The notes: generated by a model not told the origin, from the letters alone. Numbered from the stretch's first letter, positions 11,110 through 25,834 are shown. The stretch is 33,792 nt of DNA from Promethearchaeota archaeon (GCA_048939245.1 JBHLPR010000024.1:1-33792); one strand, 5' to 3'. Numbers and translations are program-made.

Positions 11110-12093
11110 TTGCCGAAATTGAGTACCATCCAAAACATGGCCATTCTTGGCGGACTAGGAGCAGCTCTGAGTCCATTCCTTACCCTTAGTGGCGCATTAT
11201 TCTGGATGACCCCCTGGTTCTATTCCTTCTACTATTATTCTAGTTTCGGTATGGTATTGTTTCTCCTCATATTCTTAATGGGAATTTTAGCCTGTGTAGT
11301 ATCGGTTCGCGCAGCAGGATATGTTAATAAAATGCCCCAACGCGCAGCGCCTGATTTGAAATCAATGGGGATACTTCTAGTCATCGTTGGCGTTATCGCT
11401 GTATTCAATTTTCTGGTTATTTTTTCAGGAATCCTCATTTTAGTGGCAGGAACTGAATGCGATGCTGCTTGGAAACGGATTCAACGGGCTCGATCCCAAA
11501 CCGGATGGCCGTATCAGACAGTGGCTACCGCAGCAGGAAACCCTTGGACTCGACGTATCTCATGTCGATTCTGTGGAGCCCCCCTCACAATTTTGAGAGC
11601 ATCAGCCAAAGCGCATCTGGTTCATCTCGAAACCAAATGCCCCCTCGATGAGACCTATGACACTATTGCACTTCCTCTCTCACGTTTGGACTCGTGGGCA
11701 CCGGTGGTCGCTGACCGCCTCCATCGATGTGAAAAATGTGGAGACCGCACTGCAGCCCTAATTGTGGTTGGGCATACAGGAATATTTACACGATTACAAG
11801 CTTATTGTCCGAACGGGCATACTAATCCAATGTATCGAAGGATATGGACGCCCCTTTACCCCCATGTAGCCCAAACACCAAGGGTCGATGTGGGATTTCA
11901 CGGTCGACCTGCCCCAGCACAATTTCAGCCAACGTTCCAACAAATACCTCCAACTCCAGTGACACAACCCTTATCCATATCTTCTAGCAAAGTAAGAGTC
12001 ACATCCGACCGACTATCGGGATTTTGTTCCCAGTGTGGAGTAAAAGTCGGTGCATCTGACATTTATTGCTTCAGATGTGGACATCAATTATGA
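11110..12093 (+). CDS. Membrane protein (about 3-4 TM) with tandem Cys/His metal fingers and C-terminal zinc ribbon
   Basis: Hydrophobic N-terminal third; CRFC..CPLD, CEKC..CPNGH; Pro/Gln linker; CSQC..CFRC. Confidence 0.8.
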   Translation: MPKLSTIQNMAILGGLGAALSPFLTLSGALFWMTPWFYSFYYYSSFGMVLFLLIFLMGILACVVSVRAAGYVNKMPQRAAPDLKSMGILLVIVGVIAVFNFLVIFSGILILVAGTECDAAWKRIQRARSQTGWPYQTVATAAGNPWTRRISCRFCGAPLTILRASAKAHLVHLETKCPLDETYDTIALPLSRLDSWAPVVADRLHRCEKCGDRTAALIVVGHTGIFTRLQAYCPNGHTNPMYRRIWTPLYPHVAQTPRVDVGFHGRPAPAQFQPTFQQIPPTPVTQPLSISSSKVRVTSDRLSGFCSQCGVKVGASDIYCFRCGHQL

Positions 12094-12099
12094 CAGTAA

Positions 12100-12633
12100 G
12101 TGAGACACATGGTTCAAGCAGCAATCGAAGCTAACCTCACCTGTTCTTGTGGCACCCCGTTCATCGTCATGACCCTTGATCCTGCCCCGAATGATAAAAT
12201 CACTGCACTTCTCGTCTGCCCAAGACATAAGGTAGGTCACCATATTACCCTTGACCACTCCGGTCTAGATCTGTGGGTTGGAATCGTCGCCGACCATCTC
12301 TATCGATGTGCAGTATGTGGGAGGGAACTACCTCCATCCCCAACAGTGAGTTCTTCTGAAGTGGCAACAACTTTCACACTTAACTGTCCTGTCCACGGCA
12401 CCCAAAACAACACTCGAACGGTTTGGAGTGTTCTACACCGAAGACTCCTTGCTGAGATTCAGCATCGGCGCACGCTTGCAGAACCTATTCAGGTGTCTCC
12501 AAAACAAGAAGAGCCTAAAACGCGACCAGCTGTAGAATCATCTGCTCCGAAGGCGATTTTTTGTCCCCAATGTGGTAAAAAAATCCGCCCCCAAGATTTC
12601 TTTTGTTATCACTGTGGAGCTGCCATTGACTAA
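12100..12633 (+). CDS. Soluble paralog of the 11110 C-terminal region (tandem metal fingers plus zinc ribbon)
   Basis: CSC..CPRH, CAVC..CPVH, CPQC..CYHC; 6 nt after the upstream stop. Confidence 0.82.
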   Translation: MRHMVQAAIEANLTCSCGTPFIVMTLDPAPNDKITALLVCPRHKVGHHITLDHSGLDLWVGIVADHLYRCAVCGRELPPSPTVSSSEVATTFTLNCPVHGTQNNTRTVWSVLHRRLLAEIQHRRTLAEPIQVSPKQEEPKTRPAVESSAPKAIFCPQCGKKIRPQDFFCYHCGAAID

Positions 12634-12676: not shown

Positions 12677-14257
12677 TTATGAGGATTCGAAAAAGGCTTT
12701 TCCAAACGAATGGAAGAGGAGCTTTTTAATCATTGGAGCAGCAGGATTCCCACGTGCATAAATAAAATATACTAAGCTTCCAAGTATGGGAACAAGAAAA
12801 CTGCTCACAAATGCTTTCCACGAGTTGAATCTTAGCCGGGGTCGCCACACATCTAAATTAAACTTCCATGCTCGAGTAAATACTTCCCATTGTAAATCTG
12901 TAAGGGCGTCGATTTCAGGTTGACTTCCCTGACTAAGTATGGAGGGTTGCAGCGGAACCCAAAGAAGAGGAGTAACGAATAATTTCATGCCTTTCATATC
13001 GTCGAGTAGTTCTAATGTGGCATTCACATCTTCTTCCTCTTCACCTGGTAATCCCACAAGCCATGTCGTAAGAGGAAACCACCGATTATCGTTTAGAATA
13101 CCCATAGCCTGCTTTACAATTTCGGGCCACTCTTTGGGTTTGAAAGGCAACGCCTTCCCTGCCATGCGTTCTTTAAATAATCGGACACTTCCAGTTTCGA
13201 TGCCTGCTTCTGCAGTAACATAGGGTTTACCTCCATGTTGGTAACGACCATGAGAAACTAAAAGTTCAGCTACTTCTTCTGTACACTTTGGATCAACCAC
13301 CACTGGCGCCAAGGCGATATGAGCCGGTTGAACATATTTCAGGTCAGGAACACTGACAAGAGTTTCTATTAAATTGACAATTGCTTTACGATTGGGTATA
13401 AAATGTGATGATTTGAGACCATAAAGAAAGAGATCTTCGGTGGCTAAAATTGCCATTTCATTTCCAGCTTCGACATTGACCTGAACCTCATTTAGAATCT
13501 TATCGATTGGAATGGAAAAGCGTCGTCGTTGTGTCGGAGAACAAAATTGGCAGCCCCGACCACAACCTCTTGTAATTTCCACTGTACCATGGAGGGACCC
13601 CCCACGAATTTGTGGAGTTTCTTCAGCAGTTCTTAGAGTTCCACCTACTGTGGTTGGAGGAAGTGGTTGACCTTTGATGGCCTTCTGAAACAGTTCCACG
13701 ACTTCTGGACCAACTTCACCTGTAACGACACAATCGATTCCTAATGTCTCTCGCGCTGCTGATCCAGCAACCTGCCATGCCCCTGCCCCTCCAGCAATCA
13801 CTTTTATTTGTCCCTGGTCGTGGGCTTTAGCAATTGCTGTCTTTCGTATTAGATTACGGAATTCGATGCGGTTCCGTGGTACGGTCCCCAAAGCAAACAT
13901 GCTTGAATAGGTTAAACTAACATAAGCGATTCCTAAGGGGTCCATACTTGATACACCGACAACACGGGTATCAGGTCCGATAAATTGATCCAAATTTTTT
14001 GGATGAACTACAGCAACTTCTGACTCATCAAAGCCATTATCGAGGAGTAACGCTTCAGCTTTACGTAAACCGTATGGTGCGATTCGGGCCTTCCCATTCG
14101 GAAGATCTGATTCTTTTGGCATGTAAAGGGGTTTGAGAAAGCTGGGAATGAGTAGAAAAGATCCTGCGAAGGCCCCGAATGGATCATCACCAAAATGACT
14201 CATTTCGATTTCAGAAGCAGTCAATACAATCTTTGTGCCGTTCTCCGTTTGACCCAT
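12677..14257 (-). CDS. Radical SAM protein with B12-binding-like N-terminal domain; resembles the GDGT-modifying Grs/Gms family
   Basis: 'EITRGCGRGCQFCSP' (CxxxCxxC), 'APYGLRKAEA', 'SSMDPLG', 'GIETGS', 'VGLPGE'. Radical SAM call is firm; subfamily is from recall. Confidence 0.85.
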   Translation of the reverse strand: MGQTENGTKIVLTASEIEMSHFGDDPFGAFAGSFLLIPSFLKPLYMPKESDLPNGKARIAPYGLRKAEALLLDNGFDESEVAVVHPKNLDQFIGPDTRVVGVSSMDPLGIAYVSLTYSSMFALGTVPRNRIEFRNLIRKTAIAKAHDQGQIKVIAGGAGAWQVAGSAARETLGIDCVVTGEVGPEVVELFQKAIKGQPLPPTTVGGTLRTAEETPQIRGGSLHGTVEITRGCGRGCQFCSPTQRRRFSIPIDKILNEVQVNVEAGNEMAILATEDLFLYGLKSSHFIPNRKAIVNLIETLVSVPDLKYVQPAHIALAPVVVDPKCTEEVAELLVSHGRYQHGGKPYVTAEAGIETGSVRLFKERMAGKALPFKPKEWPEIVKQAMGILNDNRWFPLTTWLVGLPGEEEEDVNATLELLDDMKGMKLFVTPLLWVPLQPSILSQGSQPEIDALTDLQWEVFTRAWKFNLDVWRPRLRFNSWKAFVSSFLVPILGSLVYFIYARGNPAAPMIKKLLFHSFGKAFFESS

Positions 14258-14375
14258 TCAATGACCTCAGCTGATAGACGCTGACTGTGCTCTTACACCC
14301 AATAAAGCTTCTGCACCATAAACTTGGTTCTTGGAAATGAAAAATCGCTTGCACACCTGGGTGCTCAATGGGAAA

Positions 14376-14828
14376 TTATGATTTCTCTAATTTAGCTCTG
14401 AGATTTTCAAGGGTTTGACGAGCATCAGAACGAATTTGTACATCAAGTTGTTTCCGAGTTTTTTCATCAAGTTTTCGACCTAAAAATACCTCAGGAATAG
14501 CATAAGTAATTTGATAGGTAACTCGTGTTCCACTTGCAGTGTGCTCAAAAAACCATTTAGCATCTTTAAACGGTTGTCCAGATAATGACTGCACACGGAG
14601 TGAACGCCCCAGTTGTAATTCTACAACTTCCAGTTCTTGAGTAAACCGAAAGTCATTGACACTAACGCCCATAGCAAAACGTGCACCCACACCCCACAAG
14701 GCTTCAGTTGTTGGATCATAACTTGTCACAGAGGCAATGAATTTGGATGCGTTGCGATGATTCACCGCGTATTTAAACACCTGCTCGAGTGGAGCTTTGA
14801 TTTCAATACTTTCGCTAATTTCTGTCAT
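14376..14828 (-). CDS. SRPBCC/START-fold ligand-binding protein
   Basis: 'ISESIEIKAPLEQVF', 'GVGARF', 'GTRVTY', C-terminal 'LENLRAKLE'. Confidence 0.88.
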   Translation of the reverse strand: MTEISESIEIKAPLEQVFKYAVNHRNASKFIASVTSYDPTTEALWGVGARFAMGVSVNDFRFTQELEVVELQLGRSLRVQSLSGQPFKDAKWFFEHTASGTRVTYQITYAIPEVFLGRKLDEKTRKQLDVQIRSDARQTLENLRAKLEKS

Positions 14829-14873
14829 TTTGTGTTTCCCTTGTTGTGTATCGTATCCTTCTAATTCTAAAAT

Positions 14874-16202
14874 TTAGCGATGTAAATATTCCTCCCATTC
14901 CCAATCGGTGACCGTGCCATGAGTATACTCGTACCATTCCGCTTTGCGGATTTTTTGGTATAGGTCACAGAATTCTTGACCTAATAAATTGCGGAGAACC
15001 TTATTCTGTTGAAGAGCTTGAAGGGCGCCTTTTAGAGTGTCTGGGAGCTGTTGGATTTTTAGCTGCTGCAATTGCTTGGAAGCAAGATGGTACAAATCTT
15101 GAGTAACTGGTTCAGGAGCTTGCAGATTTCGTTCAATTCCATCCATTCCAGCGCCCATCAGCACAGAGAATAACAGGTAGGGATTGGCTAGTGGATCGGA
15201 AGAGCGAAACTCTACAGCAGCTTGTTCTACCTTTGTGAAAAGGGGAATGCGAATAAGGGCAGATCGATTAAGATAGCCCCACGAGATATAGACAGGGGCT
15301 TCAAATCCAGGAACAAGTCGCTTGAAGGAATTCACCGTGGGATTAGCTAAAGCGGTTATTGCAGGGGCATTATCTAATAAGCCCGCTACAAACTTGCAAC
15401 CTGATTCGGTAAGGGTTCCATCGGGATTGCCAAGAAGGTTTTTCTTCCCCTGCCATAGTTGGAGATGACAATGAAGCCCACTTCCCGCTTGGCTGGGAAA
15501 GGGTTTGGGCATGAAACTGACTTCAACATCATAGAGGGCTGCACGTCTACGGAGAAGAAGTTTGAAGAGCATGAAATTATCAGCTGCTTGTCCAAGTTCG
15601 GTGAAGGCTAGCTCTATTTCCTGCTGACTTTGTCCATGCTCAGAATGCAACCATGCTGTTTCAATTCCAATTGCGCGTAAATCGAGAGCTGTTTCTAAAA
15701 GTAGATCCATACCCTTATTGTCTGGGAAGATATCTGCGTATCCTGCGGCATCTAGGGGAACTCCATCTTCGGTGAGGAAGTAGAACTCTGGTTCTAGTTT
15801 CACTCGTATCTGAAGCCCCTTTGAAGCGAGCATTTCTAGATTCCGCTTAAGGATGGTTCGTGGAGCAAGAGGATGAGGTATTAAATGCCCTTGCGAATCA
15901 CGTTGAAAAACATCAGCGATGACAACTGCTCGACGTGGAATACTATTGGGTAGTTCTTGGAGTGTGGAAATATCTGGAACAAGTCGAAGATCTGAAGAAG
16001 TAATAGGTGCTAATCCTTTTACCGAGGAACCATCAACCCCACAACCAGAAACGAGACTTGGATTCTTTTTTAACGTAGCAACGGAATCAACCGGGCTAAT
16101 AGGCACCGTCATTCCCTTTGATACACCATCAATATCAACAGTGAGTAATTCAACAAAATGGAGTTTACCTCGATTTTCTCTAGGAATCGTTTCTTCAGAC
16201 AT
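14874..16202 (-). CDS. glnA: Glutamine synthetase type I family
   Basis: DGSS, EPEF, HSE..QQEI, FMPKP, GSGLHCH, KRLVPGFEAP, NRSALIRIP, EFR..DP.ANPYL. Confidence 0.9.
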   Translation of the reverse strand: MSEETIPRENRGKLHFVELLTVDIDGVSKGMTVPISPVDSVATLKKNPSLVSGCGVDGSSVKGLAPITSSDLRLVPDISTLQELPNSIPRRAVVIADVFQRDSQGHLIPHPLAPRTILKRNLEMLASKGLQIRVKLEPEFYFLTEDGVPLDAAGYADIFPDNKGMDLLLETALDLRAIGIETAWLHSEHGQSQQEIELAFTELGQAADNFMLFKLLLRRRAALYDVEVSFMPKPFPSQAGSGLHCHLQLWQGKKNLLGNPDGTLTESGCKFVAGLLDNAPAITALANPTVNSFKRLVPGFEAPVYISWGYLNRSALIRIPLFTKVEQAAVEFRSSDPLANPYLLFSVLMGAGMDGIERNLQAPEPVTQDLYHLASKQLQQLKIQQLPDTLKGALQALQQNKVLRNLLGQEFCDLYQKIRKAEWYEYTHGTVTDWEWEEYLHR

Positions 16203-16350
16203 GTTTGTTACCTCTAATTGAAGCCAAGGAAGATAAAACAGGGATGTGACCTTTTAAAGCTTAATATGATATTAGCTGACCACCAATCATCTTAGATTTG
16301 GATAAGTTTATTGGGACAAACTCCACTTTGAGCATAAGAGGGTCAATTGC

Positions 16351-18288
16351 ATGAAAGGGGCGCGAACAGGATTTCTTCTTCTAATTCTTCTGTGCAGCCT
16401 TACATCATCTTTGATTCTTCATGCCCCCTCCAAGCTAATTTTCATCACACCAATAGCGGTGGCTTCTAACACCCAATCTACTGAAGTTAATTTTCTCGCA
16501 TCTCCATTAGTAAACTTCGCACCGATGACAAATGGCAATTCACCTCGAAATTGGACAGTACTTGTCTATATGGCTGCAGATAATAATGAAGAAATTGCAG
16601 CGGTCCAGAATCTCAACGAAATGGAAATTGTGGGTTCAACGCACCAAGTTAACATCCTTGTCTATGTGGATTTCCTAACAAATTACACTGGCTATGGCCC
16701 TGGCGCTTTAACTCTAAACATAACGAAAGACGACCCACCAACCAATAGTACGATCTCTTCAATGCCAGTTAATACCCCTCTTCCTCTCGAGCCGAATATG
16801 GGAGATCCTGCGACTTTGCTCGCCTTTATTCAATTCGCCCAAAATTATTCCCAAGCAGACCATTATATGCTGATTCTTTGGGGTAAAGGAACGGGCTATA
16901 CAGGCGTATGTGACGACCAAACGAGTGGTGGCGACCGACTACGTCCGCAAGAAATAGCGTGGGTGCTAGAAAACGATACGATTGAGCCAATCGACATTAC
17001 TGCCTTTGATGCATCGCTCATGGGACAGCTTGAACTCGCCTTTGAAATTCAGAACGGAACAGACTACATAATCTACTCCGAAGAAAACGTGCCCATGCAA
17101 CACTTTCCGTATCATATTATCTTAAACAGCCTTACTATTCACGAAGATTCATCCCCCATTCTGCTAGCCAAAGAAGTCGTTGATAGATATATCGAAGCCT
17201 ATTCAGCTGGGGGTACCTACTATCTAGATTTCACCCGACCGCCGACCGCCCTAAGTCTTTCCGTTATCAATACATCTCAGATAGCGGATGTGTTTCTCTG
17301 GTTCAATCAGACCATCAATTGGTTTAACACCAGTTACAATACCTATCACTACTATTCGCAAATCAGTACCGCAAGAGGTTTGACCCAGCAATTTAGCATC
17401 CCTCATTACATCGATTTGCTAGGATTTACCCAACAATTGTTTCAGCAGATACCAAACCCATCTTTCAGAAATTATGCAGGTAACCTAAGTGAGAGCATAC
17501 AAGAAGCAGTATCTTACCAACGTCATTTATCCGGCATCCCAGGGGCTAGTGGATTCGGCATCAATTTTGATTATTATCTGCCAATACCGCTCTCACTTCT
17601 TACGATGACTGCATATACCTCCTTTCTTTCAACGTTTCTGACTATTGGCGAAACTAATTCCACTTCATATACAACTTTCTCGCTTAGCAGTATCACCGGC
17701 TATCTTGACGGAGAAGCCGACTCGGTATACTATCGATTTACCCCCGAAATTGCTGCAGAACATACCATCACTCTCACTAGTTTCCAAACAGTCGATGAAG
17801 ACTTTGACCTGTATCTCTATGATGAAAATCTAAACTTGTTAGCTAGATCCATCGAATTGAGCTCTCATGAAGCTGTACAATGGGCGTTGGTTCCAGGAGA
17901 AATTTATTATCTCCAGATTTATTCAAATCCTCGACAGGACATTACCTATGGACTCGGTTCATTTGAAATCGTGATTAGCCCTGGACCACCAGTGAATCCC
18001 GTCGCGATGGTTGTTCAAATCGGGATTATTGTTACAATTGGCTGTGTCATTCTTCTTATTGGTTATATCATTTGGCGAAAACGAGAATCTATCCGACGAC
18101 AAATCCAACGATACCGAATTCGGCGTATGGCAAGGCGGCTCAGAGAAGAGGCAACAGCTGATGAGGAGAGTACGTCTCCTGCAGTCGCGACTTGTGAAAA
18201 ATGTGGTGAACAGTTACCTGAGGATGCTAGATACTGTCCGATATGTGGCGAAACTTTTACAGGCCCTGCTGACGAACCCAAGGTCTAA
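16351..18288 (+). CDS. Clostripain (C11)-fold single-pass membrane protein with substituted dyad, PPC-like domain and C-terminal zinc ribbon
   Basis: Signal peptide; 'WTVLVYMAADNN', 'EPNMGDPATL', 'YMLILWGKGTG', 'FDASLMG', 'SEE'; 'DFDLYLYD' PPC-like; TM; Arg-rich stretch; CEKC..CPIC. Confidence 0.88.
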   Translation: MKGARTGFLLLILLCSLTSSLILHAPSKLIFITPIAVASNTQSTEVNFLASPLVNFAPMTNGNSPRNWTVLVYMAADNNEEIAAVQNLNEMEIVGSTHQVNILVYVDFLTNYTGYGPGALTLNITKDDPPTNSTISSMPVNTPLPLEPNMGDPATLLAFIQFAQNYSQADHYMLILWGKGTGYTGVCDDQTSGGDRLRPQEIAWVLENDTIEPIDITAFDASLMGQLELAFEIQNGTDYIIYSEENVPMQHFPYHIILNSLTIHEDSSPILLAKEVVDRYIEAYSAGGTYYLDFTRPPTALSLSVINTSQIADVFLWFNQTINWFNTSYNTYHYYSQISTARGLTQQFSIPHYIDLLGFTQQLFQQIPNPSFRNYAGNLSESIQEAVSYQRHLSGIPGASGFGINFDYYLPIPLSLLTMTAYTSFLSTFLTIGETNSTSYTTFSLSSITGYLDGEADSVYYRFTPEIAAEHTITLTSFQTVDEDFDLYLYDENLNLLARSIELSSHEAVQWALVPGEIYYLQIYSNPRQDITYGLGSFEIVISPGPPVNPVAMVVQIGIIVTIGCVILLIGYIIWRKRESIRRQIQRYRIRRMARRLREEATADEESTSPAVATCEKCGEQLPEDARYCPICGETFTGPADEPKV

Positions 18289-20117
18289 TTCTTGATCAGG
18301 GCTTCGAGTTGATTGATGAAGGCTTCAGCTTGTTTCATGCCAAGAATCCAGAATTCCTCTTTTGAAATGTCAAAACCAAGTTCAGATGCTAGCACCCTTG
18401 GTGAGCTTGTGCTCCCGGCTGAGAGCAATCGTTTGAGTTTGGGAGCGAAATCTTTGCCTTGTTCTTTATAGAGTCGATATAGAGCAAATACAAAGAGACT
18501 GGCAAAGACGTATGGGTAGTTGTAGAGTCGGAAGCGCGGAATATAGTAGTGGCCTTTGAAGGTCCACTCCCATTTACTTTCCGGAAGCCATTCAACTGCG
18601 TCACCGAACATTCGGTCACGTCCTTTCACCCAATATTTGGAGATGGTTTCACCATCCAAATACTCCCCGCGTTCATAGGCTGCATACATATCCATTTCGA
18701 AGAAGTAACGAGCCGAAACCTGGAATACGGATTGTCCAAATTCATCTAACACTCTAACCAGTACTTCGATTTTTTCGTCTTCAGTTTTTGCTTCTTTGAT
18801 TAGCTTATCCGTGAGTAAGAGTTCACCAAAGATACTGCCCACTTCTGCAATGCACATCCCGATATCCGTGTTTATGGGTTTTTGCTTTGCAGTCATTAGA
18901 TAGTCATGGACTGCATGACCATTTTCGTGAACTAATGTGAAAACTTCACTAAGCTTTCCATTGTAACTCATCAAAATGAAAGCGGATTTACCAGCCAGCC
19001 ATGAAGCACAAAATGCTCCCTGACGTTTACCCTCTCGAATTTCGGCATCTATCCGGCGCTTATCAAACATTTCCTGTACATTTCGAGCTAAATCTGCATC
19101 AAATTCCTTGTATGTATCTATTGTCATCTGGCGAGCTTCTTTCCAGGTAAAGGTTCGTTCAGGCATATTGGGTAATGGGGCTACCACATCCCATTCTCCT
19201 AATTTTGCTAAATCCATAAGTTTCGCTTTAAATTTCAGATATCGCTGAAAGAGTGAAGAGTGGCTATCCACCGTTTTCATTAACGCATCGATGGTTTCTG
19301 CGTCCACATCATTATCAATGAGGCTTTGGGTGCGTGGGGTTGGCCATTTCCGTTTTTTGCTCATTTCAACATGGTCACCAATTAGAGCCCGAACACCACT
19401 AGCCCAAATAATCTCATCATTGCCAAGACCGGTCCAGACTATGCTTTTTGCTGCTTTACGAATATCACGGTCTGGATCATGAAAGAGTGCATGAATTTGG
19501 GTAAATGGCATTTCTTTTTTCTCGCCTTCAATTTCGATTTCGAACATCCGTGTTGACAACCAGTCTCCCCGTAATTGATACCACTGGTTTATCCCAAACT
19601 GATCTTTTTGAATAATGAGTTGTTCTTCTTCTTCACTCAGAATATGTGGGGCTCTCCGAATCGCCATTTCTAAAGCGTGCTTATATTCAGCAAGTTCTGG
19701 ATTGTCAATCAATTCTGGCTGGGTTTCAACTAATTTAGCTAGCTCGATTTCAGTGAAGGCAAGGAGCTGACCAATTTTTGAACTCATCCGCCTACCCAGA
19801 TCGGCGGCTTTTTTGGCATCAGCATCCAATGAGTTCGCATTATAACTAAGATTAGCATATTTGAAAGCGCCTTCGCGTTTCAAATATTGATCTTGCATTT
19901 TTTCAAGAAAAGTTTTCAATTCCTTAGGAGAAAGCGTACCGATTTTTCCTTTGTATTCCTTGGCGAGTTTTTCTGCAGCATTAAAGGCTTGTTTCATCTG
20001 TTTTTTTAAAGCATCAAATTTCGTTGAAGGAACCAAAGGAGTGAGATCCCATACCTCAGCATTAATCATCATGATAATTCGCCCATCCATGGAGTGAGGT
20101 TTCAGGTTAAAAGTCAA
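18285..20117 (-). CDS. pepF: M3B oligoendopeptidase F
   Basis: 'WDL..L', 'GKRQGAFC', HENGH, 'AEVGSIFGE', 'YNYPY'. True start probably an ATG near 20072. Confidence 0.93.
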   Translation of the reverse strand: MTFNLKPHSMDGRIIMMINAEVWDLTPLVPSTKFDALKKQMKQAFNAAEKLAKEYKGKIGTLSPKELKTFLEKMQDQYLKREGAFKYANLSYNANSLDADAKKAADLGRRMSSKIGQLLAFTEIELAKLVETQPELIDNPELAEYKHALEMAIRRAPHILSEEEEQLIIQKDQFGINQWYQLRGDWLSTRMFEIEIEGEKKEMPFTQIHALFHDPDRDIRKAAKSIVWTGLGNDEIIWASGVRALIGDHVEMSKKRKWPTPRTQSLIDNDVDAETIDALMKTVDSHSSLFQRYLKFKAKLMDLAKLGEWDVVAPLPNMPERTFTWKEARQMTIDTYKEFDADLARNVQEMFDKRRIDAEIREGKRQGAFCASWLAGKSAFILMSYNGKLSEVFTLVHENGHAVHDYLMTAKQKPINTDIGMCIAEVGSIFGELLLTDKLIKEAKTEDEKIEVLVRVLDEFGQSVFQVSARYFFEMDMYAAYERGEYLDGETISKYWVKGRDRMFGDAVEWLPESKWEWTFKGHYYIPRFRLYNYPYVFASLFVFALYRLYKEQGKDFAPKLKRLLSAGSTSSPRVLASELGFDISKEEFWILGMKQAEAFINQLEALIKN

Positions 20118-20173
20118 ATGGATAGATTATCTTCAGGTAAATACCCCCGCTTCATGAACGGAGTTCTGATAAT

Positions 20174-21706
20174 TTAGGTGTTGAGTTGGTAGCACACACT
20201 ACTAAACTGATTGAAAATATCACGAAAAGCTTTGTAAAGCCGATCATACGTGGCTACCCGCTCGGCATCGGGTTCCACTGTTTGGTCAAAGGTAAAGAGT
20301 CGTTCTAAAGCATCAAAGGATTTGAATTCACCCAATGCAACCGCAGCTACTAATGCAACACCAACTGTGCCTGCGTCTTGGAGAGTAGTCACTCGTTTCA
20401 AAGACACGTTAAGGACATCTGCGAAAATCTGCATCCATAGATCACTTTTAGATCCGCCCCCACAAATGTTCAGACTGCTAATAAAATGACCCATCCCCTC
20501 AAGCACCTCTTTGACCCAACGGGTATTATAGGCTACTCCTTCAAGCACCGCCCTCGCCATATGTGCGCGAGTGTGGTCAAAGCTCAGGTTAAGGAACGCA
20601 CTGCGTACAAAGGGATTGATGAAAGGACATCGTTCACCAATAGGCCACGGCAAATACAAGAGATTCCGACTTCCCGGTGGAACCTGTTTTGCTTTCTCGG
20701 TAACCAAGTCGTAGACATCGATTTTAGAAGCTGAGGCTTCTTCAAGTTCAGCAGTACACACATTGTCCACTAACCATGCTAAACACGCCCCCGCACTTTC
20801 CATATGTCCAGTAAGCAATAGCCGTCCTGGCATTGCACTTTCCACTGTGCCAGCACCCGCCAAATCAAATTGTGGCTCATCTTGATGTTGTGCAATCCAC
20901 CCTGAAGAACCCACATACAAGTGTGGCTTTTTCGGTTTGATAGCCCCCGACCCGATTGGAACAGCAACCATATCACCACAACCAACAATAACTTGAGTTT
21001 CAGTTGTTAGCCCTAATTTCTTTGCTACGTCAGGGGATAGAGCCCCCAAGTTGTCTGTGGTCTTTTTAATTTCTGCAAAATGGTCTAGTGAGAGCCCTAA
21101 GCCTTCTTCGATGATTTCTGGTTCTGCCTTGTGTTTATCAATACGGAAGTAATTCCAAAGACAGGCATGACTCCAATCGGTATAGAAGTCACCTACACCA
21201 CATTGATACAGAATCCAATCCTTAACATCCACAAACTTGACAGCTTTTTTGAAAACCTTAGGCTCTTCATGCTTCACCCACAATATCTTTGGTAGCGGGT
21301 CCTTTGCCGATACAACGGGAATGATATTCTTCTCTAACATATCCGGAATTGAAAACTGATTCATCAATGGAGTTACATAGTCAACAGAACGGACATCAAG
21401 CCATAGGATAGTTTTGCGAAGCGGACGACCTTTTGCATCCACTGGAATGACAGAAGCCATCATCGCATCGACAATAAATGCTGTAATCTCTCGGGGGTCG
21501 ATGTTTGTTTGTTCGATAATTGTTCGCGTTGTTGTGGTAATGGCATCCCAATACACCTGAGGATCCTGTTCAGCCCATCGTTCCTGAGGATATTCAACCT
21601 GATAAGCTTGTGCAGCAGTACCTTGCACACATCCTTTCATGTCAATGATGCTGGACTTGGTTGCACTGGTTCCTAAATCACATGCAAGAATGTATTTCTC
21701 TGACAA
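20174..21706 (-). CDS. FGGY family carbohydrate kinase (xylulokinase-like)
   Basis: 'DLGTSATK', 'WAEQDP', 'WLDVRS', 'GERCP', 'RAVLEGVAY', 'GGGSKS'. Confidence 0.92.
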   Translation of the reverse strand: MSEKYILACDLGTSATKSSIIDMKGCVQGTAAQAYQVEYPQERWAEQDPQVYWDAITTTTRTIIEQTNIDPREITAFIVDAMMASVIPVDAKGRPLRKTILWLDVRSVDYVTPLMNQFSIPDMLEKNIIPVVSAKDPLPKILWVKHEEPKVFKKAVKFVDVKDWILYQCGVGDFYTDWSHACLWNYFRIDKHKAEPEIIEEGLGLSLDHFAEIKKTTDNLGALSPDVAKKLGLTTETQVIVGCGDMVAVPIGSGAIKPKKPHLYVGSSGWIAQHQDEPQFDLAGAGTVESAMPGRLLLTGHMESAGACLAWLVDNVCTAELEEASASKIDVYDLVTEKAKQVPPGSRNLLYLPWPIGERCPFINPFVRSAFLNLSFDHTRAHMARAVLEGVAYNTRWVKEVLEGMGHFISSLNICGGGSKSDLWMQIFADVLNVSLKRVTTLQDAGTVGVALVAAVALGEFKSFDALERLFTFDQTVEPDAERVATYDRLYKAFRDIFNQFSSVCYQLNT

Positions 21707-21762
21707 TACTAACCCTCAATCCTACTAAAGGCGGGCATACGAAAAAAGCTTATACCCAACAC

Positions 21763-22863
21763 TCATTTGTGCTTCATAGCCTTCTCAATCGTCGCTACAC
21801 AGGCTTCATTTTGTTCTTGGGTTCCTACAGTTATTCGGATAAATTGACCAACTAACCCTGCCTTACCAGTATAATCTCGAACGATAATCCCATTTTGCAG
21901 CAATTGCTGAGCAATGATATTGGAATCCACATTAGATGTTGTATACTGTGTGAGTACAAAATTAGTTTTAGATGGAAAGGCTTTGACACCTGAAATCTTA
22001 TTGAGCGCCTTTTCAAGATACTCACGACCCGTTTGAATTTTTTCTTTCACAAAAGCGAGGTAAGCTACATCACCTAGTGCAGCCACTGCAGCAGCCGCGG
22101 TAACGCGGTTCACGGGAAAATGATGCAAAACTTTTGAGAGATATTCAGCTAATTTTGGATTAGTAAGAGCATATCCTAATCGGAGTCCTGCAAACCCAAA
22201 GGCCTTTGCCATAGTCCGTGTGATGATGAGATTGGGATAGTCGTCGATGAGATGGGCGAAGGTAGTGTCACCAAAATCAAAGTAGGCTTCATCAACAACG
22301 ATGAGCATATCCAAGTCTAATACCCGTTTAAGTTCTCGTTCAGGAAGACAATTCCCGACCGGGTTGTTGGGACTGATTAGAATGATTTCTTTGGTCTCCG
22401 CCCTTATTGTGTCAAAGACATGATCAAGATTCCATGAATAATCAGGCGGAGGACGTGGTGCTGATTGCGCAATCCCCCCAAAAATCCCAAGGCGCAATTG
22501 GTAGGGTCCATAATCCGGAGGCACAAAAAGAACAGCATCGCCGGGGCTCAGAAAACCATGGTAAAAGGCGTCAATAAAGTGAGTGGATCCATTACCAACA
22601 ACAATATGGGTGTCAGCAACCCCCGTATAGGTTGCTAACGCTTGTTTGAGATCATAATAAGAAGAGTCTGGGTAAAGATGTGCTCGTTCGAGTTCTTCAA
22701 TAGCAGCTTGCCGGGCTTTTGGCGAGATGCCAAAGGGAAGCTCATTACCCATAAGCCGGGCATAATCGGAACGGATTTCATAGAGTTTGCGCAGTAGCGC
22801 TGTCGGGCTATAAGCGATACCACTCGTAATATGTGGTTTCAGAAGACGTGAAATATCACCCAT
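21763..22863 (-). CDS. PLP-dependent class I/II aminotransferase, HisC/CobD-like
   Basis: 'YPD', 'GNGS', 'SPNNPVG', 'DEAY', 'RTMAKAFGFAGLRLGY', 'RITVGT'. Confidence 0.9.
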   Translation of the reverse strand: MGDISRLLKPHITSGIAYSPTALLRKLYEIRSDYARLMGNELPFGISPKARQAAIEELERAHLYPDSSYYDLKQALATYTGVADTHIVVGNGSTHFIDAFYHGFLSPGDAVLFVPPDYGPYQLRLGIFGGIAQSAPRPPPDYSWNLDHVFDTIRAETKEIILISPNNPVGNCLPERELKRVLDLDMLIVVDEAYFDFGDTTFAHLIDDYPNLIITRTMAKAFGFAGLRLGYALTNPKLAEYLSKVLHHFPVNRVTAAAAVAALGDVAYLAFVKEKIQTGREYLEKALNKISGVKAFPSKTNFVLTQYTTSNVDSNIIAQQLLQNGIIVRDYTGKAGLVGQFIRITVGTQEQNEACVATIEKAMKHK

Positions 22864-22890
22864 AATGTATTCCCACCCTGACCAGTAACG

Positions 22891-22904
22891 GGAAATAGCT
22901 TTCC
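22891..22904. promoter_or_regulatory. GGAA-N6-TTCC palindrome (NrpR-type nitrogen operator candidate)
   Basis: GGAAATAGCTTTCC lies between a minus-strand TTTTAAG TATA-like element (~22917-22923) and the aminotransferase ATG. Confidence 0.4.
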
Positions 22905-23016
22905 GCAGGAAGATGTCTTAAAATCGATGGTTGTACCGAAAACTGAGTCAATCGAAGGTCATGGGTTTTTCCACTAACCACCTCGCTTTTAAACTGGATC
23001 CGTGCTATCTGTCGAT

Positions 23017-24534
23017 ATGTCCATTTATGACGAAATCATGGCAAAATATCGTGAAGTAACATTAGCCCAAACTATTTTCCATCTAATCAATTGGGATATG
23101 GATTGTTACATACCACCCAAAGGGTATGCCTTACGTGGTGAACAATTAGGCTTTCTTAGCAAGATGCGTCAACGACTCGTATCAAGCCCAGAATTGGGAA
23201 AATTACTCAAGAAAGCCGAATCGGAAAGTGAATTCAAGAAATACGATGAAATACAACGACGAAATATTCACCTGTTGCGACGCGAATATGACCTCATGGT
23301 AAAAGTTCCCGAGGAACTCACCGTAGCGATTGCTAAGCAACGAGCAAAAACCGATCAGACTTGGAAAAAAGCCAAAGCGAACAATGACTGGAAAAGCTTT
23401 CAGCCAGATCTCGAAGAACTCATTACACTCCTGTGGAAATATGGCGAAATCCTGATGGACGTTCGAAACACTCCCACCGTCTATGATGCGTTGATCGACC
23501 AATATGAACCACTGATGACCCAAGACAAGATCGCCAAGGTTTTCACAAAGCTTCGAAATGACCTCATCCCATTAGTCGATAAATATACAAAAGCAGCAGA
23601 ACACATGGATTTCTCGTTCATGAACCGTAAAGTAACTGTTGACCAACAACGGAAAATCTCAACTGCACTGTGTAACTTCGTCCAATATGACACCACCTCA
23701 GAGCAGGCTGGAGGGCGTATTGACGAAACCGAACACCCGTTTACAACGGGATATTACGATGATGTCAGGATAACTACTCATTACCACGAGGACAAATTCG
23801 CAGCCTCATTCTATTCAGTACTCCATGAAAGTGGTCATGCATTATATGAACAAAATTATCCACCCGAAGGAAAATTTCAACCCTGGGGCGACGCACCCAG
23901 TTATGGGGTGCACGAATCCCAGTCCCGATTTGTAGAAAATATGTTGGGTCGATCGAAGGAATTTATCACCTACTTCCTTCCGACCCTGAACAAACTAACC
24001 AATAATACTTTCAAAGACATCAGTGCCGACCAGATGACCAAAGCCGTCAATAAGGTTGAACGCTCAAAAATACGAATTGAAGCCGACGAAGTCACCTATT
24101 CTCTGCACATTATTATTCGCTTTGAGATTGAAAAAGACTTATTCGCAAACAAGATCGGAATCACAGATTTACCCAGTGTATGGAACGAGAAATACAAAGA
24201 GTATCTAGGCGTGGTTGTCAAAAACGATTCAGAAGGGGTCCTGCAGGATACCCATTGGGCTTCAGGCTATCATGGCTATTTCCCCAGTTATGCACTTGGG
24301 AACGTTTATGGTGGCCAATTTCTCACAACGATGGAAAAGACGCTCCCCAACTGGCTTGACCTCGTTGCTGATGGTAAATTTGGACCAATTAAACAATGGT
24401 TAGTGGATAATGTTCACCGGAAGGGCGACCTATACGATCCCGAAGACTTACTTTATCGTGTTACAGGGGAAAAACTCAATGCCCGACCCTTCATCCAGTA
24501 TCTTACAGGCAAATACAAGAGAATCTTTGGCTAA
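23017..24534 (+). CDS. M32 family carboxypeptidase (Taq/Pfu type)
   Basis: HPF, DVRITT, HESGHALYEQ, HESQS, IRIEADE, QDTHW, YFPSY. ATG at 23017 (track GTG 23002). Confidence 0.96.
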   Translation: MSIYDEIMAKYREVTLAQTIFHLINWDMDCYIPPKGYALRGEQLGFLSKMRQRLVSSPELGKLLKKAESESEFKKYDEIQRRNIHLLRREYDLMVKVPEELTVAIAKQRAKTDQTWKKAKANNDWKSFQPDLEELITLLWKYGEILMDVRNTPTVYDALIDQYEPLMTQDKIAKVFTKLRNDLIPLVDKYTKAAEHMDFSFMNRKVTVDQQRKISTALCNFVQYDTTSEQAGGRIDETEHPFTTGYYDDVRITTHYHEDKFAASFYSVLHESGHALYEQNYPPEGKFQPWGDAPSYGVHESQSRFVENMLGRSKEFITYFLPTLNKLTNNTFKDISADQMTKAVNKVERSKIRIEADEVTYSLHIIIRFEIEKDLFANKIGITDLPSVWNEKYKEYLGVVVKNDSEGVLQDTHWASGYHGYFPSYALGNVYGGQFLTTMEKTLPNWLDLVADGKFGPIKQWLVDNVHRKGDLYDPEDLLYRVTGEKLNARPFIQYLTGKYKRIFG

Positions 24535-24985: not shown

Positions 24986-25834
24986 ATGATCCATCACGTC
25001 TTCATCATCGATGCACGAGAAATTATTGTAGTGCAGAAGAAATTCTGGATCATTGACATCGATCACAAGGAAATGAGACAATTTGCAGCGCGGGTTAAAG
25101 CAAACCAAGCACTCCTAATAGAACAAATCGGGACCACAAAATACATTGGACAACCACTCGGTCGTGGCGTTGTGATTCTTGGTGCCGAGAATGTGGATGA
25201 AGATACCACACTTCTTGAAAAAATTGATACAGTAACTTTCGAGTTCCGCCGGGTTATTAGTCATGAGGAAGACTTTGATGCCTTCATGCAAAAACTAGAC
25301 AGATATGTGACAACTAAATTGAAAGTTAGTCTATTAGGTTATGGAGGCGTCGGCAAAACCACTATCCTCCATCTCCTCAATGGCGGCAAAATGCCCCAAA
25401 CTTATATCCCAACAATTGGAATTGATATCCAGAAAGTAGAAGGGGCCCGAATTGGTACCTATGAGCTCCTTGTTTGGGATTTCGCTGGTCAAGAAAGGTT
25501 CCGAAAATTATGGAAGATGCTCTTTTCGCGGAGTCGCATCGTCTTTATTGTCACCGATTCCACTTTAGAAAATGTATTACAAAGTAAGGACATTCTCGAA
25601 TTCCTAAAAGAACAGGGCTTAACAAGCGATATCGTTGTTATTGCCAATAAACAGGATTTGACAGGGGCTCTTCAACCGGGTCTTGTTCAACGCCTGTTGG
25701 GAGTGAAGGCATTTGGTCTCACTGCTATTGATCCTAATGACCGAGAAAAAGCGTTGGACATCATTCGAATAAGCTTGGAACGTACGATAGATTGGGGTAG
25801 GATGGAAATCGAAACCGTTGATTTTCTTCCATAA
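24986..25834 (+). CDS. Small GTPase (Ras/Arf/Rab-like) fused to an N-terminal longin-like domain
   Basis: G1 GYGGVGKTT, G2 PTIG, G3 WDFAGQ, G4 NKQD, G5-like TAI; N-terminal 'MIHHVFIID' domain of about 110 aa. Confidence 0.9.
   Translation: MIHHVFIIDAREIIVVQKKFWIIDIDHKEMRQFAARVKANQALLIEQIGTTKYIGQPLGRGVVILGAENVDEDTTLLEKIDTVTFEFRRVISHEEDFDAFMQKLDRYVTTKLKVSLLGYGGVGKTTILHLLNGGKMPQTYIPTIGIDIQKVEGARIGTYELLVWDFAGQERFRKLWKMLFSRSRIVFIVTDSTLENVLQSKDILEFLKEQGLTSDIVVIANKQDLTGALQPGLVQRLLGVKAFGLTAIDPNDREKALDIIRISLERTIDWGRMEIETVDFLP

Follow-up and report, generated by a model that had tools for sequence, protein, structure and literature searches.

In a 33,792-nucleotide stretch of DNA from a Promethearchaeota archaeon (GCA_048939245.1 JBHLPR010000024.1:1-33792; below, the window, from whose first letter positions are counted), we noted a gene at 16351-18288 on the plus strand that encodes a protein of the clostripain (C11) peptidase family with lysine (K179) and serine (S222) at the positions of the catalytic histidine and cysteine. 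Based on the comparisons given here, we believe that it is probably a pseudo-peptidase, anchored in the membrane and kept by selection in one group of Asgard archaea.

A preliminary description of the window, made from the sequence alone, had read the two family motifs as LILWGKG and FDASLM, and we find both in an open 645-codon frame, at residues 174-180 and 219-224, with K179 encoded by AAA (16885-16887) and S222 by TCG (17014-17016). It had also considered a sequencing error unlikely, and this holds: an independent assembly, L008, encodes a protein of 87% identity with the same AAA and TCG codons, and we use it as the reference for the ratio of non-synonymous to synonymous substitution rates (dN/dS). 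Its supporting argument, that each change takes two nucleotide substitutions, needs one qualification: for Cys to Ser, a single non-synonymous change (TGY to TCY) suffices, the other difference being synonymous. The layout that it proposed, with a signal peptide, a C11 fold bearing 12 N-x-S/T sequons, a PPC-like domain, one transmembrane helix, an Arg-rich segment and a zinc ribbon, was recovered by Pfam, hydropathy, AlphaFold2 and Foldseek. The features are as follows.

16351..18288, plus strand: whole gene, 645 residues and a stop codon; open reading frame with signal peptide, probable C11 pseudo-peptidase, PPC domain, transmembrane helix, Arg-rich helix and zinc ribbon
16338..16343, plus strand: candidate ribosome-binding site GAGGGT, 7 nt 5' of the ATG, read from the sequence
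16351..16431, plus strand: N-terminal signal peptide, residues 1-27 (basic n-region, hydrophobic core 5-27), by hydropathy; helix 3-20 in the model
16432..16536, plus strand: disordered, fast-evolving linker, residues 28-62; predicted local distance difference test (pLDDT) below 30; dN/dS about 2 against L008, few sites
16537..17655, plus strand: clostripain (C11) fold with its helical C-terminal subdomain, residues 63-435, by Pfam, HMMER and Foldseek; dN/dS 0.14
16885..16887, plus strand: K179 (AAA), catalytic His position; variable in orthologues (H, K, E, L, Y, I, V) in alignments
17008..17010, plus strand: D220, which matches Asp177 of PmC11, the Asp that sets S1 specificity; invariant in alignments
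17014..17016, plus strand: S222 (TCG), catalytic Cys position; in alignments the orthologues have Ser almost throughout, with one Ala and one Asp
17101..17103, plus strand: H251 (CAC); alignments show Gly here in 98-100% of the relatives with His/Cys, and His or Arg in all orthologues that lack His179
17656..17994, plus strand: beta sandwich like PPC and collagen-binding domains, residues 436-548, by Foldseek (5sv5, 1nqd, 2o8o) and by Pfam PPC in orthologues
17995..18078, plus strand: single transmembrane helix, residues 549-576, by hydropathy and model
18079..18159, plus strand: Arg-rich cytoplasmic juxtamembrane helix, residues 577-603, positive-inside, by sequence and model
18184..18252, plus strand: cytoplasmic four-Cys zinc ribbon, residues 612-634 (C615, C618, C629, C632), by Pfam and alignment

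Pfam places Peptidase_C11 (PF03415) on residues 72-390 (E 1.7e-40) and Zn_Ribbon_1 on residues 615-633, and hydropathy finds two hydrophobic segments only, the signal (5-27) and the transmembrane segment (548-577). The Pfam PPC profile (PF04151) has no match in the window protein at E <= 1. It passes in the orthologues P0030 and P0021, and Foldseek matches residues ~440-545 to the PPC and collagen-binding domains 5sv5 (E 1.4e-6), 1nqd and 2o8o with TM-target scores of 0.74-0.79. All 12 sequons lie within residues 67-436, compared with 5.7 +/- 2.1 in shuffled sequences (p ~0.004), and 6-7 of them are kept in orthologues. N123-I-T, N208-x-T, N307 and N378 are conserved only in the clade of Ser-bearing orthologues described below, suggesting that this clade gained fixed glycosylation sites.

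Fold, active-site positions and selection

In Foldseek searches with the AlphaFold2 model, which was built on an alignment of 31 orthologues (mean pLDDT 80.4, and >90 across most of the C11 core), the top matches are C11 structures (6n9j, E 1.8e-19; clostripain 9cip, 8e-19). By profile and by fold alike, the protein is a homologue of family C11. In HMMER alignments of the protein and of the family profile with 6n9j, 9cip, 6mzo and 4yec/3uws, K179 is matched to the catalytic His and S222 to the catalytic Cys, which by counting residues are His133 and Cys179 of PmC11; the same count on PmC11 chain B yields Cys179, Asp177, Thr204, Met205 and Asp207, in agreement with the published structure. In the model, strands 169-177 and 214-220 stop just ahead of the K179 and S222 sites, residues 440-545 form a beta sandwich, and residues 550-603 form one long helix. 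The His-Cys dyad of an active C11 cysteine peptidase is thus absent from the ends of strands beta5 and beta6, where K179 and S222 stand instead. Replacing the nucleophile of PmC11 (C179A) abolished autoprocessing, and that mutant served as an inactive control (PMC4850288).

Other parts of the active site are present. D220 is invariant and N78 is at least 93% conserved; their PmC11 equivalents, Asp177 and Asn50, set the Arg/Lys specificity of the S1 pocket (PMC4850288). Active C11 peptidases have an autoprocessing site or linker behind the His strand (the nonapeptide of clostripain, Lys147 of PmC11). The nine-residue linker that clostripain excises falls in a gap of the window-protein alignment, but orthologues with His and Cys lack it too, so its absence alone is no sign of inactivity. 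Right after the position of that linker there is a Cys-x-Asp motif (C187, D189; 16909-16917) whose two residues are invariant in the clade without the dyad and occur in 67% and 99%, respectively, of active C11 enzymes.

From 1.8 billion representatives we gathered 164 full-length C11 domains, made up of 137 relatives and 27 orthologues, and we compared about 30 orthologous sequences from the same locus, where the C11 gene lies between the genes for glutamine synthetase (GlnA) and oligoendopeptidase F (PepF). The dyad positions are His/Cys in the 137 relatives. In the 27 orthologues, residue 222 is Ser in 25, Ala in one and Asp in one (the His/Asp variant P0019), while residue 179 is His, Lys, Glu, Leu, Ile or Val, with Tyr in one further locus; Ser222 co-occurs with every one of these seven. 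Cys-to-Ser or Cys-to-Asp swaps also recur in a few unrelated multi-domain proteins. In trees, the Ser-bearing proteins form one group (support of 100 in the Shimodaira-Hasegawa-like approximate likelihood ratio test, SH-aLRT) on a long stem branch, nested within His/Cys proteins; the base of the group is a polytomy in quick trees. P0030, a relative from a metagenome, is also flanked by GlnA and PepF and has canonical WDHG and FDAC motifs, which indicates that the form without the dyad arose at this locus from an enzyme whose dyad was intact.

We observed that a third position, 251, varies together with 179 and 222. Position 251 corresponds to PmC11 Gly208, which adjoins Asp207 of the S1 loop. 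Active relatives have His179, Cys222 (TGY) and Gly251. Some orthologues, which we call type A, have His179, Ser222 encoded by AGY, and Gly251, and in the others, type B, to which the window protein belongs, residue 179 drifts, Ser222 is encoded by TCN, and residue 251 is His. Unlike all others, an Ile/Val lineage of type B (P0016-P0018; L013, L014, L076, L077) has Arg251 and a histidine at 181, in the motif WD[IV]GHGY. Ser222 has an AGY codon in all sequences that keep His179 and a TCN codon in all that have lost it (the window, L002, L015, L016, L019, L069, L078, L079, L081). AGY and TCN cannot be interconverted in one step, and each is one step from TGY. Monophyly of the sequences that lost His179 is not recovered in the maximum-likelihood tree, but the approximately unbiased (AU) test does not reject it (IQ-TREE, LG+G4; log-likelihood difference 18.6, p-AU 0.12), so residues 179, 222 and 251 may have become coupled only once.

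Purifying selection acts on the gene. Compared with L008, dN/dS is 0.14 in the C11 domain and 0.16 in the PPC domain, similar in scale to the flanking GlnA (0.13) and PepF (0.09). The linker at residues 28-62 (16432-16536) has a dN/dS of ~2.2, from few sites and with its significance not assessed. In a group-wise comparison, the Ser clade has relaxed or replaced H179, C222, G251, L80, D87 and P168, whose conservation is 93-100% in close His/Cys relatives and 86-100% in distant ones. D77, N78 (at least 93%), D107, G180, D189, D220, S243 and E244 are kept as invariant positions. We therefore have a homologue of an enzyme family that has lost its catalytic residues and is held by purifying selection, as expected of a pseudo-peptidase.

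A probable pseudo-peptidase and its alternatives

We consider it probable that the window protein is a non-catalytic pseudo-peptidase, descended from a membrane-anchored extracellular Arg/Lys-directed C11 cysteine endopeptidase and fixed in one Asgard genus-level group, that binds ligands at the cell surface or acts as a scaffold. In the sequence of events that we propose, the nucleophile Cys would first have changed to Ser, after which the general-base His would have become dispensable and drifted, with Lys as one of seven states. Purifying selection maintains the fold, the PPC domain, the transmembrane helix and the cytoplasmic zinc ribbon, and with them Asp220 and Asn78 of the acidic S1 pocket and Gly180 on the oxyanion side; the clade has also gained conserved N-glycosylation sequons. 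The predicted product is a glycosylated ectodomain that would keep an Arg/Lys substrate-recognition surface and would be unable to form a thioester intermediate. We infer that such an ectodomain may bind basic peptides or proteins and leave them uncut, the Cys-to-Ser change having made a natural substrate trap, or that it may be a glycosylated scaffold; any link between ligand binding and the cytoplasmic ribbon is likewise an inference. K179 itself appears to be no catalytic base and to have no essential role. The preliminary description had offered a dead protease as one of two possibilities, and the loss of the dyad, the lack of co-variation between residues 179 and 222 and the purifying selection support that choice.

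Several observations weigh against this interpretation. Ser222 is held more tightly than mere tolerance would require, and its occurrence in both codon classes implies either two independent Cys-to-Ser events or selection that held Ser through a switch of codon class. Every member keeps one histidine in an active-site loop (at 179, 181 or 251) with Gly180 and Asp220 intact, so residual or altered hydrolytic activity is possible. A basic side chain at 251, joined in the window protein by the one at 179, could fill or neutralise the acidic S1 pocket, and a basic residue at 251 or 179 might then plug the pocket rather than allow binding.

The same genome (G000) has a second C11 gene, P0043, on another contig (C46:21071-24268; L095:1492-4560, minus strand). 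Its 1079-residue product has an intact dyad (WNHG / FDAC) and the same order of C11, PPC, transmembrane and C-terminal zinc-ribbon elements as the window protein, with an N-terminal extension of ~500 residues that has no Pfam match. In further genomes of the group, too, the Ser form occurs alongside a His/Cys paralogue, ~640 or ~1080 residues long. The dead domain might partner the active paralogue, or compete for its substrates, from the same membrane layout, much as cFLIP does with caspase-8 or an iRhom does with its client. A His/Cys paralogue with transmembrane helix and ribbon was seen among the examined loci in 7 of the 13 genomes with the Ser variant, including that of the window, several more had a second, untyped match, and the S1 pocket is common to both proteins. 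Nevertheless, the type of paralogue varies between genomes, the two genes are unlinked, and PmC11 is a monomer (PMC4850288), and we regard a partnership of this kind as doubtful.

The paralogue also bears on the zinc ribbon. The presence of the transmembrane helix and ribbon in a His/Cys protein indicates that the tail predates the loss of catalysis. In a crude scan of the whole genome, 34 open reading frames have CxxC...CxxC in their last 40 residues, and ~25 of these have the form [FY]CxxCG-x(6-9)-[FY]CxxCG, on many membrane proteins of unrelated architecture. Two ribbon-ended frames lie within the window itself, at 11110-12093 and 12100-12633. The ribbon thus appears to be a recurrent, generic cytoplasmic tail module in this genome. 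The preliminary description had proposed, as one reading, a peptide-sensing receptor built from a dead protease; the dead protease is supported, but a tail shared with active paralogues and orthologues and with ~25 other proteins of the genome is no evidence for a dedicated signalling receptor.

Another possibility is that the protein is a serine hydrolase with a relocated histidine, in which Ser222 would pair with His179 in type A and with His251 or His181 in type B, the window protein included. The three-site pattern fits this idea, in that His179 and Gly251 accompany AGY serine while His251, or Arg251 with His181, accompanies TCN serine, and a histidine is held at 251, beside the S1-loop Asp207, while 179 drifts. 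Gly180, Asp220 and Asn78 are kept as well, and catalytic residues are known to migrate (PMC10211241). Against it, one lineage has Arg rather than His at 251, no acidic third residue is evident, and, if type B arose once, the coupling may be a historical coincidence. A bulky residue in place of a strictly conserved Gly more likely remodels or plugs the pocket, and SERA5, the experimentally studied Ser-for-Cys case that we found, has a reported non-enzymatic role. We find a relocated histidine unlikely, and quite unlikely in the specific form in which the clade would be active with a changed catalytic type, its nucleophile Ser222 served by a histidine that moved from 179 to the S1 loop as His251. 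If this were true, it would be a serine hydrolase on a caspase/clostripain scaffold, reached from Cys via both Ser codon classes. Brenner reportedly proposed that serine proteases arose from Cys by this double route.

The second possibility raised in the preliminary description was a Ser-Lys peptidase, in which K179 would activate S222 as nucleophile, a change of catalytic type on a caspase-like scaffold. The two residues do occupy both dyad positions, Lys is retained under two different codons (AAA, AAG) in the K/E clade of 14 members that contains the window protein, and the gene is under purifying selection. We checked whether K and S co-vary, and they do not. Seven residue types stand at 179 beside Ser222, with L, Y, I, V or H in the orthologues outside the K/E clade. 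In the nearest sister clade of the window protein the charge is reversed, with three Glu members nested beside one Lys member, and in another orthologue Lys is accompanied by Ala at 222. The Gly251 that active enzymes always have is also replaced. Varied residues at the site in close homologues are what the preliminary description had named as a refutation; they contradict the proposal, which we rate as very improbable, and the protein belongs to no Ser-Lys peptidase family. Signal peptidase I (S26), LexA (S24) and Lon (S16), in whose families both Ser and Lys are strictly kept, resemble the window protein in residue types only; their folds are unrelated to C11, and their Lys is fixed where that of the window protein varies among orthologues.

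A decaying pseudogene or an assembly artefact, which the loss of both catalytic residues might suggest, is refuted with near certainty by the open 645-codon frame, by intact orthologues in 13 genomes and many metagenome contigs, by the dN/dS of 0.14 and by the same codons in an independent assembly.

Distribution and gene order of the locus

We searched a sample of 301 genomes of the phylum and counted matches at E <= 1e-40. Matches were found in 16 of the 18 genomes of the window's own family and in just 6 genomes from three other families. The Ser-bearing form is present in 13 of the 15 genomes of one genus-level group, which includes the window genome. The named relatives are metagenome-assembled genomes (MAGs) labelled Promethearchaeota, Hermodarchaeota or Hodarchaeota. 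The two genes that flank the C11 gene are conserved.

14874..16202, minus strand: glutamine synthetase (GlnA), divergent neighbour
18285..20117, minus strand: M3B oligoendopeptidase F (PepF), convergent neighbour whose gene overlaps the C11 stop codon by 4 nt

The order at 12677-24534 is radical SAM, SRPBCC, GlnA, the C11 gene, PepF, FGGY kinase, aminotransferase and M32 carboxypeptidase. As far as the aminotransferase, this order is kept even in relatives whose C11 protein is only 42-50% identical. In L001, the nearest locus checked, M32 comes after the aminotransferase, and L003 has a tandem duplicate of PepF. Given that a whole block of >10 genes is syntenic among close relatives, gene order may reflect relatedness only, and a functional link to PepF, GlnA or M32 is unproven.

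The Tyr/Ser orthologue, L102 (G110:C48, 5479-7467), is in two pieces ~175 nt apart, and the adjacent GlnA is also split. The name of that contig gives a low coverage (~2.7x), which makes errors of assembly likely and decay of the gene less so. Further along the window, at 24986-25834, a signature gene of Asgard archaea encodes an Arf/Roc-type small GTPase that is extended at its N-terminus; together with the labels of the named relatives, it marks the source as an Asgard archaeon.

Comparison with known systems

When the metabolism of Asgard archaea is reconstructed, C11 genes are counted towards the capacity to degrade extracellular protein (bioRxiv 10.1101/2025.03.11.642519), and MAG annotation pipelines label the genes studied here 'clostripain-related cysteine peptidase'. 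Since one of the two C11 genes in this genus-level group lacks the dyad, such counts overstate proteolytic potential. Pseudo-proteases of clan CD are known as a kind, but we found no C11 or Asgard pseudo-peptidase described in the literature that we searched. The locus offers a natural series of the birth of a pseudoenzyme, from the intact dyad, through Ser with His, to Ser with a drifting residue 179 and His or Arg at 251, which can be used to ask if binding proteins of the cell surface evolve from Cys-to-Ser substrate traps.

Compared with the C11 enzymes (clostripain 9cip; PmC11 3uws/4yec; thetapain and iotapain 6n9j, 6nag; 6mzo), the window protein has the same fold with the helical C-terminal subdomain, the same motifs flanking the dyad, the S1 Asp in D-A-x, Asn78, Gly180 and an extracellular location. 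It differs by His to Lys, Cys to Ser and Gly251 to His, by the missing clostripain linker, and by its membrane anchor, PPC domain and cytoplasmic zinc ribbon.

Dead proteases of other folds that are kept by selection include CspC of C. difficile and the iRhoms, which are reported to be used in ligand sensing or client binding. For the window protein, in contrast, there is no evidence of signalling, and its ribbon is found on active paralogues as well. SERA5 of Plasmodium, a papain-like domain with Ser for Cys, is reported to have an essential non-enzymatic role (PMC4671257), and shares with the window protein a natural Cys-to-Ser change in a cysteine-protease fold. It is of an unrelated fold (clan CA), comes from a eukaryotic parasite and retains its His.

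Parallels within the clan are the pseudo-orthocaspases and the pseudo-metacaspase TbMC4 (clan CD, C14), in which Tyr/Ser is the most common combination and the fold and acidic pocket are conserved; the survey of orthocaspases reported no archaeal pseudo-variants (PMC6426788). They belong to the same clan, have Ser at the Cys position and keep the acidic pocket, and one C11 orthologue in our set is likewise Tyr/Ser. The window protein, by comparison, is a C11 rather than a C14 protein, extracellular, predicted to be glycosylated and anchored in the membrane, and residue 179 varies within its clade.

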